64,000 bases of DNA from positions 736,001 through 800,000 of the forward strand of contig BK006948.2 of the NCBI GenBank assembly GCA_000146045.2, read 5' to 3'. The notes under the pieces were generated by a model. It made no database searches and was not told the origin of the DNA. It saw only the letters and a list, made by a program, of their open reading frames with translations. Positions within the stretch are counted from its first letter, which is position 1. Every line of letters starts with the position of its first letter. This stretch comes from TPA_inf: Saccharomyces (taxonomy: Eukaryota). The position numbers and the translations under genes are program-made. Of this stretch, positions 23,326 to 47,298 are shown in pieces.

Positions 23326-23529
23326 GCATGTCTGTCCTACCAGCCCTTGCATAGGCGTCTTAAAATGTTGAGAAGCCTAAACTTCCCTCAATTTCCTACA
23401 CAAAAGGGCATTAAGATGAACAAAATGATGATCTCTCCGATGGACTTGACGCTTATACCAAAAGAGACTCGATATAAACAACACGGTTTTATAGTCCTGG
23501 ATTATTAATCCGCACGATTAATTTTGTAT
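23326..23529 (-). ncRNA. SNR35: H/ACA box snoRNA candidate matching snR35 (about 204 nt). snR35 guides pseudouridylation of 18S rRNA at the site later hypermodified to m1acp3-pseudouridine.
   Basis: Remembered chromosomal coordinates map here using the SNR17A anchor. The minus-strand RNA ends ...GGACAGACAUGC, so an ACA box sits exactly 3 nt from the 3' end. A 5' hairpin (GGAUUAAUAAUCC) and an H-box-like AGAUCA are present. A Reb1 site lies upstream. Confidence 0.55.
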
Positions 23530-42554: not shown

Positions 42555-43405
<851 letters not shown>

Positions 43406-44020
43406 TTTATCTATGATTTATCTGGTTCTACTTTTGCAAAGGTTGTTTAAGCAAAGAAACTGTTTTCGGACCTTTATCTGCTATAATAATCGTTTTTTCA
43501 AAATCTGGTGCTAAGCGTAACTGGTGCAAGCCATAGGTAGCCTCACTACGGTACAGAGGTTACTTTGAAAGCAAGAACCCTTCACATGTCACACCTGCAC
43601 GCAGAGGCATGGAGAGGCCAGCACAAACCACCATGGATGGGTAAAGTCATAGAAGGAAAAGCACATGGTACCCAGGCAGAGTTCCCCCCAGCAGTGACGC
43701 TCTGTTGCACTGGCCGGAAGAAGATGGTGTAAAGAGAAGCGGTCTCCAGGCAGAACAAATTCTGATTGCCCGTCTACCGGTAAAGCTTTCTCACAATATA
43801 CCGTACGTTTCAAAAAAAATATTGATTCTTTTTTTATAAAAATATCAGTAGTATGTATGGGCTGATTGTATGGGTTTATACAGGCCGTCAAAATTTTTTC
43901 ACCCCCCCATACCCCACATACCTTTTACTATTAACCCTGATTTTTTTTCTTTTCACATACAGCGCCTTAAGGCGAAGGCAAATCCTGAAAATTTTCTCAT
44001 TTGCTTTCCCCCACCAGACA

Positions 44021-44030
44021 TATATAAAGG
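44021..44030 (+). promoter_or_regulatory. TATA box (TATATAAAGG) about 80 bp upstream of the U3 snoRNA 5' end. Rap1-like C-rich motifs lie further upstream at about 43868-43925.
   Basis: TATATAAA seen directly. The upstream CACCCCCCATACCCCACATACC and TGTATGGGTTT resemble Rap1 sites (ACACCCATACATTT). These are shared with the divergent RPL33B promoter. Confidence 0.4.
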
Positions 44031-44106
44031 CTTTGTATTCTGCTGTCAATTAGATTTAGTACATCTTTTCTCTTATGTTTTCTTCTTGTTTCTACTTAAA
44101 ATCTGT

Positions 44107-44596
44107 GTCGACGTACTTCAGTATGTAATATACCCCAAACATTTTACCCACAAAAAACCAGGATTTGAAAACTATAGCATCTAAAAGTCTTAGGTACTAG
44201 AGTTTTCATTTCGGAGCAGGCTTTTTGAAAAATTTAATTCAACCATTGCAGCAGCTTTTGACTAACACATTCTACAGTAGGATCATTTCTATAGGAATCG
44301 TCACTCTTTGACTCTTCAAAAGAGCCACTGAATCCAACTTGGTTGATGAGTCCCATAACCTTTGTACCCCAGAGTGAGAAACCGAAATTGAATCTAAATT
44401 AGCTTGGTCCGCAATCCTTAGCGGTTCGGCCATCTATAATTTTGAATAAAAATTTTGCTTTGCCGTTGCATTTGTAGTTTTTTCCTTTGGAAGTAATTAC
44501 AATATTTTATGGCGCGATGATCTTGACCCATCCTATGTACTTCTTTTTTGAAGGGATAGGGCTCTATGGGTGGGTACAAATGGCAGTCTGACAAGT
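44107..44596 (+). ncRNA. SNR17A: U3 small nucleolar RNA gene snR17A (C/D box, pre-rRNA processing). Exon 1 is 44107..44120, the intron 44121..44277 (157 nt), and exon 2 44278..44596. Mature RNA is 333 nt.
   Basis: Recognised as U3 (GUCGACGUACUUCA | intron | UAGGAUCAUUUCUAUAGGAAUCGUCACUCUUUGACUC...GGCAGUCUGACAAGU). The intron has GTATGT, the branch point (G)ACTAAC and CAG. The 157-nt intron length matches the A copy. Confidence 0.93.
44121..44277 (+). other. SNR17A: Spliceosomal intron within the U3 snoRNA gene.
   Basis: GTATGT immediately after nt 14 of U3. TGACTAACAC branch region at 44259-44268. 3' splice site TACAG|TAGG. Confidence 0.88.
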
Positions 44597-44905
44597 TAAC
44601 CACTTTTTTCCTTTTCTAAATTGTTTAAAACCAAAGGTTTGGTTTTCAGTTAAGAAATTGGATTAGTTGGTGTGTAAGTATAATTAAATGTAGTCTTGGT
44701 TAGCTTAATGTATAGGTTCTTGATAGTATGACTCCACCTAAAATTCGTCAAGAGCGACGGATGCGAAAACAAAAAAATCGCTTTGCATCCTTACGTGCGT
44801 GAGATGGCATCGCTGGCCAAAGGGAAACGTTTCATTATTTTCTGTAGTTAACATTATGCTTTGCATGATAATAAGAGAAATTGAAGAGCGCAACGAACTA
44901 CGAGC

Positions 44906-45541
44906 ATGGCTGGAGGAAAGATTCCTATTGTAGGAATTGTGGCATGTTTACAGCCGGAGATGGGGATAGGATTTCGTGGAGGTCTACCATGGAGGTTGCC
45001 CAGTGAAATGAAGTATTTCAGACAGGTCACTTCATTGACGAAAGATCCAAACAAAAAAAATGCTTTGATAATGGGAAGGAAGACATGGGAATCCATACCG
45101 CCCAAGTTTCGCCCACTGCCCAATAGAATGAATGTCATTATATCGAGAAGCTTCAAGGACGATTTTGTCCACGATAAAGAGAGATCAATAGTCCAAAGTA
45201 ATTCATTGGCAAACGCAATAATGAACCTAGAAAGCAATTTTAAGGAGCATCTGGAAAGAATCTACGTGATTGGGGGTGGCGAAGTTTATAGTCAAATCTT
45301 CTCCATTACAGATCATTGGCTCATCACGAAAATAAATCCATTAGATAAAAACGCAACTCCTGCAATGGACACTTTCCTTGATGCGAAGAAATTGGAAGAA
45401 GTATTTAGCGAGCAAGATCCGGCCCAGCTGAAAGAATTTCTTCCCCCTAAAGTAGAGTTGCCCGAAACAGACTGTGATCAACGCTACTCGCTGGAAGAAA
45501 AAGGTTATTGCTTCGAATTCACTCTATACAATCGTAAATGA
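44906..45541 (+). CDS. DFR1: Dihydrofolate reductase (211 aa).
   Basis: DHFR family motifs (IVAC..MGIG..GLPW, GRKTWESIP, VIGGGEVY). Length and position match YOR236W. Confidence 0.9.
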   Translation: MAGGKIPIVGIVACLQPEMGIGFRGGLPWRLPSEMKYFRQVTSLTKDPNKKNALIMGRKTWESIPPKFRPLPNRMNVIISRSFKDDFVHDKERSIVQSNSLANAIMNLESNFKEHLERIYVIGGGEVYSQIFSITDHWLITKINPLDKNATPAMDTFLDAKKLEEVFSEQDPAQLKEFLPPKVELPETDCDQRYSLEEKGYCFEFTLYNRK

Positions 45542-45993
45542 AACCTCTCCGCCCGTATATTTTTTTTAATATGTTAAATAGTGATAGAACTGATAAGCCT
45601 CATTTTCTTTTATTGGGCTCCAAGACGCGAACTGTTCGTAGGGTAACCGTTTGACACCTAAACGACCTTTCAGCCTCACCTGCAGTATTTCTTCAACAAC
45701 GCCTGTCGCTATGTTAAATAATAGCAATCGTTTGTGATCACCATTGTCGAATTTGACGCGCTTAAACAAAAACCATTGTTTTGGCCTCGTTCCCTGCATT
45801 CAACAAAAGAGCAAGGTATGCCGTCAAACAGTCGTTAAAAGAGAAGGTTTATAAACTATCTTGTTTTGTACTTTGCTGTCCCGGATCCAGTTGGGTCTTC
45901 TTTTCAACCTGTCTGAGTCCGATCTTTCTTTCCCTACTTGAAGCTCCATATATCTAAGTCATCTAAGTGTATCCTGCTAGATTACAAACGAAA

Positions 45994-47298
45994 ATGTCTC
46001 AACACGCAAGCTCATCTTCTTGGACTTCTTTTTTGAAATCGATAAGTTCGTTCAACGGAGATCTATCGTCTTTGTCTGCACCACCGTTTATTCTTTCTCC
46101 CACTTCCTTAACAGAGTTTTCTCAGTATTGGGCTGAACATCCAGCTTTATTTCTGGAGCCTTCGTTGATTGATGGTGAAAACTACAAAGATCACTGTCCC
46201 TTTGACCCAAATGTGGAATCAAAGGAAGTGGCGCAGATGTTGGCGGTTGTTAGGTGGTTTATTTCTACTTTGAGATCTCAATACTGCTCTAGAAGCGAAT
46301 CGATGGGTTCTGAAAAGAAGCCTTTGAACCCATTCTTGGGTGAGGTATTTGTTGGAAAGTGGAAAAATGATGAGCATCCAGAGTTTGGTGAAACGGTTCT
46401 TTTAAGTGAGCAAGTTTCACATCATCCACCTATGACAGCATTTTCGATTTTTAATGAAAAAAATGATGTTTCTGTTCAAGGATACAATCAAATTAAAACT
46501 GGTTTTACCAAAACATTGACGCTAACGGTCAAACCATACGGGCATGTCATTTTGAAGATTAAAGATGAGACCTACCTGATTACAACCCCGCCTTTGCATA
46601 TCGAAGGTATTTTAGTCGCTTCTCCATTTGTTGAATTAGGAGGCAGGTCATTCATACAGTCATCAAATGGTATGTTATGTGTTATAGAATTTTCAGGAAG
46701 GGGGTATTTCACAGGGAAGAAGAACTCCTTTAAGGCAAGAATTTACAGAAGCCCACAAGAGCATAGTCATAAAGAAAATGCGCTATACCTAATCTCTGGC
46801 CAATGGTCAGGTGTTTCAACAATTATAAAAAAAGACTCGCAAGTTTCACATCAGTTTTACGATTCATCGGAAACTCCTACTGAACATTTATTAGTTAAGC
46901 CAATCGAAGAACAACATCCTCTGGAAAGTAGGAGGGCATGGAAGGATGTGGCAGAAGCAATCAGACAAGGAAATATTAGTATGATAAAAAAGACTAAGGA
47001 AGAACTAGAAAATAAGCAAAGAGCCTTGAGAGAACAAGAACGCGTAAAAGGTGTGGAATGGCAAAGAAGATGGTTCAAACAAGTGGACTACATGAATGAA
47101 AATACATCAAATGATGTAGAGAAAGCAAGTGAAGATGATGCCTTTAGGAAATTGGCGTCCAAACTGCAGCTTTCTGTGAAAAATGTGCCAAGTGGGACAT
47201 TGATTGGCGGCAAAGATGATAAGAAAGATGTTTCAACCGCATTGCATTGGAGGTTTGATAAAAATTTGTGGATGAGGGAGAACGAAATTACTATATAA
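45994..47298 (+). CDS. HES1: Oxysterol-binding protein homolog (434 aa). Trimmed to the ATG giving [10 protein letters not shown].
   Basis: OSBP fingerprint EQVSHHPP. Length and position match YOR237W, the paralog of KES1. Confidence 0.85.

Follow-up and report, generated by a model that had tools for sequence, protein, structure and literature searches.

Genes and features of the U3 locus

The window analysed here, a stretch of 64,000 nt of Saccharomyces DNA (GenBank assembly GCA_000146045.2, contig BK006948.2, positions 736,001 to 800,000 of the forward strand), carries on its plus strand, at 44107-44596, a U3 small nucleolar RNA (snoRNA) gene that is interrupted by a spliceosomal intron and that is almost certainly SNR17A, the major one of the two U3 genes of S. 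cerevisiae. The gene, its intron, the unusual branch site and the processing pathway are already known, in the literature since 1990 as well as in the standard annotation, and the discovery of the intron is credited to Myslinski et al. 1990 (Myslinski, Segault and Branlant), as cited in PMC5832005 and PMC5499572. The locus thus has little weight as a discovery, being a textbook gene, real but ordinary. A first-pass annotation made from the letters of the window had proposed it, and every central claim of that annotation was borne out. All positions given below are those of the window.

The exons, the intron and the splice signals were read from the sequence. Exon 1 and exon 2 together give a spliced RNA of 333 nt, and the coordinates from which the first-pass annotation had reconstituted it (44107-44120 plus 44278-44596) are exact.

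44107-44120, plus strand: exon 1 (GTCGACGTACTTCA), 14 nt
44110-44112, plus strand: GAC box, spliced positions 4-6
44114-44118, plus strand: box A' (TACTT), spliced positions 8-12
44121-44277, plus strand: spliceosomal intron, 157 nt
44121-44126, plus strand: 5' splice site GTATGT
44260-44266, plus strand: branch site GACTAAC, with the branch A at 44265
44274-44277, plus strand: 3' splice site ACAG (CAG at 44275-44277)
44278-44596, plus strand: exon 2, 319 nt
44280-44295, plus strand: box A (GGATCATTTCTATAGG), spliced positions 17-32
44344-44349, plus strand: box C' (TGATGA), spliced positions 81-86
44371-44382, plus strand: box B (AGAGTGAGAAAC), spliced positions 108-119
44515-44523, plus strand: box C (CGATGATCT), spliced positions 252-260
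44586-44591, plus strand: box D (GTCTGA), spliced positions 323-328

The boxes stand in the canonical order (GAC, A', A, C', B, C, D) in the spliced RNA and all of them are invariant in nine species, in agreement with the U3 box architecture that had been expected of the spliced sequence.

Identification of the gene and of its 5' exon

The whole window was scanned with Rfam at the gathering threshold, which returned two RNAs, snR35 and Fungi_U3. The Fungi_U3 match (RF01846) lies at 44263-44596 on the plus strand, covers the full model (1-274) and exceeds the gathering score of 95 with its 213.5 bits (E = 7e-56), in support of the U3 gene claimed in the first pass. For comparison, twelve syntenic U3 loci of other Saccharomycetaceae were fetched via their DFR1 orthologues, each with one Fungi_U3 match upstream of DFR1. 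Nine of these loci (S. paradoxus, S. mikatae, S. kudriavzevii, S. arboricola, S. eubayanus, Naumovozyma castellii, Nakaseomyces glabratus, Lachancea thermotolerans and Torulaspora globosa) carry their intron, 77-162 nt long, at a site that agrees exactly with that in the window, after an identical 14-nt exon 1, and together with the S. cerevisiae window they make up the ten intron-bearing species referred to below. Chance is excluded by the E-value of the Rfam match together with this identity of exon 1 and the shared intron position in all ten species.

The remaining three loci are without an intron (Kazachstania africana, Vanderwaltozyma polyspora and Eremothecium gossypii), and these natural orthologues were used as a stand-in for the Rfam scoring of an intron-removed sequence.

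L010, 1706-2010: intronless U3 locus of E. gossypii
L011, 3721-4123: intronless U3 locus of V. polyspora, where the Rfam match spans 403 nt
L012, 3890-4194: intronless U3 locus of K. africana

In the genomic DNA of all three, GACGTACTTCA runs uninterrupted into TAGGATCATTTC (in longer context, CGACGTACTTCA into TAGGATCATTTC), which is the splice junction predicted for the window. In the K. africana alignment exon 1 occupies Rfam model positions 1-15, and model positions 1-16 fall on GUCGAC-GUACUUCAU, that is, on the exon 1 of the window plus the first base of its exon 2.

There is no weighty evidence against an interrupted gene with a separate 5' exon, but three observations can be held up to it. 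The Rfam match starts at 44263, within the intron; in its alignment model positions 1-16 are filled with the tail of the intron (UAACACAUUCUACAGU), with four non-standard pairs in the first helix; and in RNAduplex calculations against the 5' end of the 18S rRNA, the spliced version (-16.7 kcal/mol) and the version with the intron tail (-17.2 kcal/mol) were not separated, the intron tail happening to resemble exon 1. Since the match is single, contiguous and full-length, it could be taken to mean that U3 is uninterrupted and starts near 44263, with 44107-44120 as unrelated upstream sequence, a reading that we consider so improbable as to be negligible. The start inside the intron follows from the inability of a covariance model to skip 157 nt, and the four non-standard pairs count against the contiguous alignment itself. 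Moreover, exon 1 with its 14 nt does not vary among the ten species, while the sequence between it and box A is only 46% identical (in the six Saccharomyces species), the intronless orthologues have exon 1 directly before box A, the first hairpin folds at -9.5 kcal/mol when spliced vs. -6.6 kcal/mol in the contiguous genomic form, and a published junction primer as well as splicing assays (see below) agree with an intron. The interrupted gene is therefore retained in what follows, and its apparent start in Rfam (44263 vs. 44107) illustrates that a covariance-model match on genomic DNA can conceal a short 5' exon.

A permissive Rfam scan of 43900-44800 (E up to 1) gave only Fungi_U3 matches, hence neither an embedded snoRNA nor a self-splicing intron is present there. 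A self-splicing (group I or II) or tRNA-type intron was likewise rejected, with no structured-RNA family match in the same interval.

Splice signals and published evidence for splicing

The intron is of the yeast spliceosomal type, and the GTATGT, ACTAAC and CAG signals named in the first-pass annotation are all present, with the addition that the full branch site is a non-consensus GACTAAC: it departs from the consensus UACUAAC in its first base (G for U) and keeps the core ACUAAC. The distance from the branch A to the 3' splice site is 12 nt, as in all ten intron-bearing species. A search with a gapped GTATGT...ACTAAC...YAG pattern and a first gap of 40-70 nt gave no match, which is uninformative, as the actual gap is 134 nt. 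The same signals were described for snR17A, with 5' and 3' splice sites that are canonical and a branch site that reads GACUAAC, not UACUAAC (PMC3454408).

That the gene is actually spliced, both in vitro and in vivo, rests on published work. Pre-U3A was spliced in vitro in a Cwc24p-dependent manner (PMC3454408), the reverse transcription PCR products of spliced and unspliced pre-U3A were cloned and sequenced, and splicing was found to precede 3'-end trimming (PMC5499572). The oligonucleotides used in these studies could be placed on the window: the exon-1 primer and the intron primer of PMC5499572 match at 44102 and 44186, respectively, primer U3for132 (PMC3454408) matches at 44239, and the branch-site mutagenesis primer (PMC3454408) matches at 44233 apart from the G-to-T exchange at 44260 that was built into it by design. 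A primer across the exon junction (GACGTACTTCATAGGATCATTTCTA; PMC3454408) matches positions 4-28 of the spliced RNA and is absent from the genomic sequence.

The first-pass annotation had called such an intron rare, which is true of snoRNA genes in general and does not extend to fungal U3 genes, among which introns are common: 138 of 310 carry them, nearly all in the 5' half of stem-loop M1, and within Saccharomycotina they are confined to Saccharomycetaceae (PMC5832005). Mapped across fungi by Canzler, Stadler and Hertel 2017 (PMC5832005), these introns occupy the same place as the one in the window (the M1 5' half, typical of Saccharomycetaceae and Sordariomycetes) and resemble it in their GT-AG ends, in the RCTRAC motif at the branch site and in having branch site and acceptor close together, whereas its 157 nt exceed the fungal average of 92 nt. 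The intron-encoded snoRNAs (e.g., snR38 in the TEF4 intron) also tie snoRNA production to the spliceosome, in the opposite topology: in SNR17A the snoRNA consists of the spliced exons and the intron is discarded, its middle being poorly conserved and without an Rfam match.

Assignment to SNR17A rather than SNR17B

According to the cited papers the two S. cerevisiae genes encode U3 RNAs of high sequence similarity, both have an intron, and SNR17B too has a branch site that begins with G (PMC3454408), so that the RNA alone may not distinguish the copies. SNR17B is a minor contributor to 18S rRNA production, and deleting both genes is synthetic lethal (bioRxiv 10.1101/2022.03.10.483001). That the window holds this paralogue instead is exceedingly improbable. 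Its intron measures 157 nt, as published for snR17A, vs. 130 nt in snR17B (PMC3454408), the pre-U3A intron primers match it exactly, and SNR17A is located on chromosome XV (bioRxiv 10.1101/2022.03.10.483001). The neighbours of the U3 gene in the window are RPL33B (minus strand) together with the IRC13 (YOR235W) open reading frame (ORF) on one side and DFR1 on the other, with no POC4 between U3 and DFR1. SNR17B, compared here via the cited papers, has other genomic neighbours; it lies on chromosome XVI, next to RPL33A and POC4. It is because of the intron length, the primer matches, the neighbouring genes and the absence of POC4 that the gene was assigned to SNR17A, as had been proposed. No difference from SNR17A of chromosome XV was detected, the 333-nt spliced RNA, the 14-nt exon 1, the 157-nt intron, GACUAAC, the primers and the neighbours all being the same.

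Comparison across Saccharomycetaceae

The nine intron-bearing loci have a common layout, with exon 1 followed by GTATG(T/C), the intron, (G/A/C)ACTAAC, a 12-nt spacer, (C/T)AG and TAGGATCATTTC. GTATGT is the 5' splice site of all ten intron-bearing species but L. thermotolerans, which has GTATGC. Identity along the gene was calculated as the mean pairwise value in alignment A1, which comprises six Saccharomyces species:

promoter: 62%
exon 1: 100%
first 15 nt of the intron: 100%
middle of the intron: 45.7%
last 29 nt of the intron: 91.5%
exon 2: 94.7%
3' flank: 75%

Conserved exons and splice signals around a diverged intron middle are the pattern that would be expected of an intron that is spliced out and constrained in its signals.

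The absence of the intron from E. gossypii, V. polyspora and K. africana, set against its presence in N. castellii, N. glabratus, Lachancea and Torulaspora, implies that it was lost precisely and independently several times, and the three cases fit the remark in PMC5832005 that intron presence differs among close relatives. Such variation among syntenic U3 genes might be of use for intron-loss studies.

The U3 of N. glabratus (L007, 4145-4742) is about 441 nt long when spliced, compared to 333 nt in S. cerevisiae. The greater length of U3 in this species and in V. polyspora is due to expansions of the 3' domain, and an extra stem was reported for the U3 of C. glabrata (PMC5832005), in agreement with the N. 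glabratus length.

Structure of the spliced RNA

RNAalifold was applied to nine spliced sequences and predicted 77 pairs; in ten of them, which without exception belong to the 3' domain, both partners changed in a compensatory way. The predicted fold consists of the 5' hairpin M1 (pairs 4-7 with 36-39 and 11-19 with 24-33), a central stem located between C' and D, and further stems next to B and C; the compensatory pairs include the central stem (columns 96-106 with 337-348). The first 87 nt of U3 are invariant in this alignment, which thus neither supports nor contradicts the helices placed there. Exon 2 also contains two T6 runs (44478-44483 and 44544-44549), which would argue against transcription by RNA polymerase III.

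3' trailer and presumed processing signal

Downstream of the mature 3' end two further elements were found on the plus strand:

44604-44615, plus strand: U-tracts T6 (+8 to +13) and T4 (+16 to +19), conserved in alignment A3
44609-44662, plus strand: extended hairpin with an AGGU (AGNN) tetraloop at 44635-44638, minimum free energy -20.6 kcal/mol, z = -2.95

The hairpin has 21 pairs, with an 8-bp upper stem under the AGGU tetraloop. Across ten species 11 of the 21 pairs are changed on both sides (five of the eight upper-stem pairs covary), 87% of the cells are paired, and CAA-AGGN-TTG around the tetraloop is invariant. Values as high as these did not occur in any of 500 shuffles, and with the partners displaced by one column the pairing fell to 49-60%. 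As most known substrates of Rnt1p are marked by AGNN tetraloops (PMC4334505), the hairpin is presumed to be a processing signal for this RNase III. Rnt1p-dependent 3' intermediates of pre-U3 at +58, +18 and +12, protected by Lhp1p and Lsm proteins, have been described (PMC5499572). The position of the hairpin would fit the +58 product (44596 + 58 = 44654, 16 nt 3' of the tetraloop), and the U-tracts would likewise fit the published +12 and +18 intermediates, to which Lhp1p and Lsm proteins bind.

Proposed route from gene to functional U3

U3 is known to have a trimethylguanosine cap, to bind Snu13, Nop1, Nop56, Nop58 and Rrp9 and to be needed for cleavages A0, A1 and A2 (PMC5499572, PMC7144924), and pairing of its 5' domain with the 18S rRNA 5' end and the 5' external transcribed spacer (ETS) has been documented (PMC5832005, PMC3130255). 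The identity of the gene, its exon and intron boundaries, the conserved splice signals, the covariation in 3' domain and trailer hairpin and the junction seen in intronless orthologues come from the sequences compared here; transcription by RNA polymerase II, the splicing itself, the enzymes of processing, the bound proteins and the part played in rRNA maturation are taken from such work or deduced from it. The features of the window can then be placed in the following order. Starting about 86 nt past the TATA box, RNA polymerase II would yield a capped precursor composed of the 14-nt exon 1, the 157-nt intron, the 319-nt exon 2 and the 3' trailer. The spliceosome would remove the intron early, via GUAUGU, the weak branch site GACUAAC and CAG, and thereby link exon 1, with its GAC and A' boxes, to the box A that exon 2 carries, so that the 5' domain would become complete and could pair with the 18S rRNA 5' end and the 5' ETS. 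Rnt1p would cut the AGNN-capped hairpin in the trailer, the U-tracts bound by Lhp1p and Lsm would protect the +18 and +12 intermediates, and the exosome would then shorten the RNA to its mature 3' end (44596). Snu13, Nop56, Nop58, Nop1 and Rrp9 would be recruited by the C'/D and B/C motifs, and the 333-nt RNA would act in the small subunit processome, in the pre-rRNA cleavages A0, A1 and A2.

Could the intron have a role of its own?

The ends of the intron are unusually constrained among the six Saccharomyces species (the first 15 nt invariant, the last 29 nt about 92% identical), and the 12-nt spacer between branch site and 3' splice site (ACACAUUCUACAG) is nearly unchanged in the ten Saccharomycetaceae. 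None of the ten intron-bearing species has U as the first base of the branch site; this base is G in eight, A in N. castellii and C in L. thermotolerans. Weak branch sites may have been selected for, or the spacer may be constrained for another cause. Going further, the intron might be more than a passive passenger, with selection for a deliberately weak, Cwc24-dependent splice, although we hold this to be doubtful. Were it true, a weak splice would couple U3 output, and hence ribosome production, to the capacity of the spliceosome; alternatively, it would keep the 18S-pairing 5' domain unassembled until the snoRNP proteins are bound. The three syntenic orthologues without an intron speak against an essential role, as does the lack of covariation for a pre-U3 structure, described next.

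A conserved structure of pre-U3 was also sought, using RNAalifold on the 5' region of the precursor, and received no covariation support there (covariation term +0.2). The predictions comprised a hairpin of exon 1 and the 5' splice site, in which all pairs are invariant, and a helix in which the tail of the intron pairs with box A, with only one-sided change and two breaks; both were rejected for lack of covariation.

Overlapping open reading frames

Two ORFs overlap the gene, both at the coordinates given by the first-pass annotation:

43870-44184, plus strand: dubious ORF IRC13/YOR235W, 104 aa, an exact match to Irc13p of S288C
44418-44603, minus strand: unnamed ORF of 61 aa with a GTG start, antisense to exon 2, not in the protein collection

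The name YOR235W had been attached to the second of them, which was a misassignment: being a minus-strand frame with a GTG start and no entry in the protein collection, this ORF cannot be YOR235W, and it is the plus-strand ORF that matches Irc13p (IRC13 being YOR235W; PMC3994138). That one of the two encodes a real protein to which deletion phenotypes belong is very unlikely. IRC13 is annotated in several S. cerevisiae genomes and its deletion scored in a genome-wide screen (PMC3994138), yet none of the five other Saccharomyces species (S. paradoxus, S. mikatae, S. kudriavzevii, S. arboricola and S. eubayanus) has the frame intact, owing to stops, frameshifts or a lost start codon. The overlapping ORFs are spurious, as had been claimed. 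The 61-aa ORF, besides its start codon and its antisense position, is absent from a collection of 15 billion proteins. The IRC13 frame extends over the U3 promoter including the TATA box, over exon 1 and, with the 5' splice site, into the 5' part of the intron, so that its deletion removes SNR17A function. The irc13 deletion phenotypes seen in screens (e.g., PMC3994138) hence probably reflect damage to the SNR17A promoter and exon 1, that is, loss of U3A.

Promoter elements

Upstream of the gene, in the intergenic region shared with the divergent RPL33B, the following elements were located:

44021-44028, plus strand: TATA box (TATATAAA), the mature 5' end (44107) lying 86 nt downstream
43933-43939, plus strand: AACCCTG, candidate Tbf1-type snoRNA promoter element
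43931-43951, plus strand: TTAACCCTGA followed by a T-run (T-run 43941-43948), containing AACCCTG
43899-43922, plus strand: C-rich tract (CACCCCCCCATACCCCACATACC), with 3-4 mismatches to the Rap1 13-mer
43852-43877, minus strand: two tandem Rap1-like cores (CAGCCCATACATA and AAACCCATACAAT), oriented to RPL33B

The TATA box was found where it had been reported, at 44021, and ACATATA.AA.GG is conserved around it in the six Saccharomyces species. Besides the TATA box, AACCCTG is among the best-conserved blocks of the promoter: six of its seven bases are invariant (A94 and C96-G100 of alignment A1), and the motif is unchanged in five of the six species, S. paradoxus having AGCCCTG. It may resemble a Tbf1 site and is considered a candidate only. 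TBF1 and RAP1 are the main snoRNA promoter factors in S. cerevisiae (PMC4138321).

The Rap1-like C-rich motifs of the first-pass annotation (the tract at 43899-43922) stood only in part, as candidates with three mismatches exist both in this tract and on the minus strand, and these are weak matches: at up to two mismatches, the Rap1 13-mer ACACCCRYACAYM has no match in the promoter, and its window-wide count was no higher than in shuffles. The best plus-strand match (43899-43915) has three mismatches and lies in the C-rich tract, which is partly conserved in alignment A1. Each of the two tandem cores also has three mismatches to the 13-mer, and their region is partly conserved (72% identity in the six species). 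A scan with the 9-mer core gave one promoter match (CCCATACAT at 43853-43861, minus strand), which is not significant window-wide. The Rap1-like motifs may be functional. The main text of Knight et al. 2014 (PMC4117944) does not mention RPL33B. A scan for sigma-70 promoters and intrinsic terminators, which is not applicable to a eukaryotic gene, gave nothing above shuffles.

Neighbouring genes and synteny

The genes next to U3, one of which has a spliceosomal intron of its own, and the second snoRNA of the window are as follows:

42555-43405, minus strand: RPL33B, ribosomal protein L35Ae, with its own spliceosomal intron
43405-43387, minus strand: RPL33B exon 1 (ATGGCTGAATCCCATAGAC)
43386-42860, minus strand: RPL33B intron, 527 nt, with GTATGT, TACTAAC and TAG
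42859-42555, minus strand: RPL33B exon 2, to the stop codon at 42555
44906-45541, plus strand: DFR1, dihydrofolate reductase (PF00186), 310 nt downstream of U3, with clear orthologues across Saccharomycetaceae
45967-47298, plus strand: oxysterol-binding-protein (OSBP) gene, downstream of DFR1
23326-23529, minus strand: snR35, H/ACA snoRNA, full-length match to Rfam RF01255 with 233.5 bits vs. a threshold of 40

All twelve fetched loci have U3, DFR1 and the OSBP gene in the same order. In N. castellii, V. polyspora, K. africana and four further species the block reads kinase, RPL33, U3, POC4, DFR1 and OSBP, with one additional gene between U3 and POC4 in E. gossypii. Those four further species did not undergo the whole-genome duplication. 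SNR17A and SNR17B would fit as duplicates from this event, with POC4 presumably kept only on the sister (SNR17B) block.

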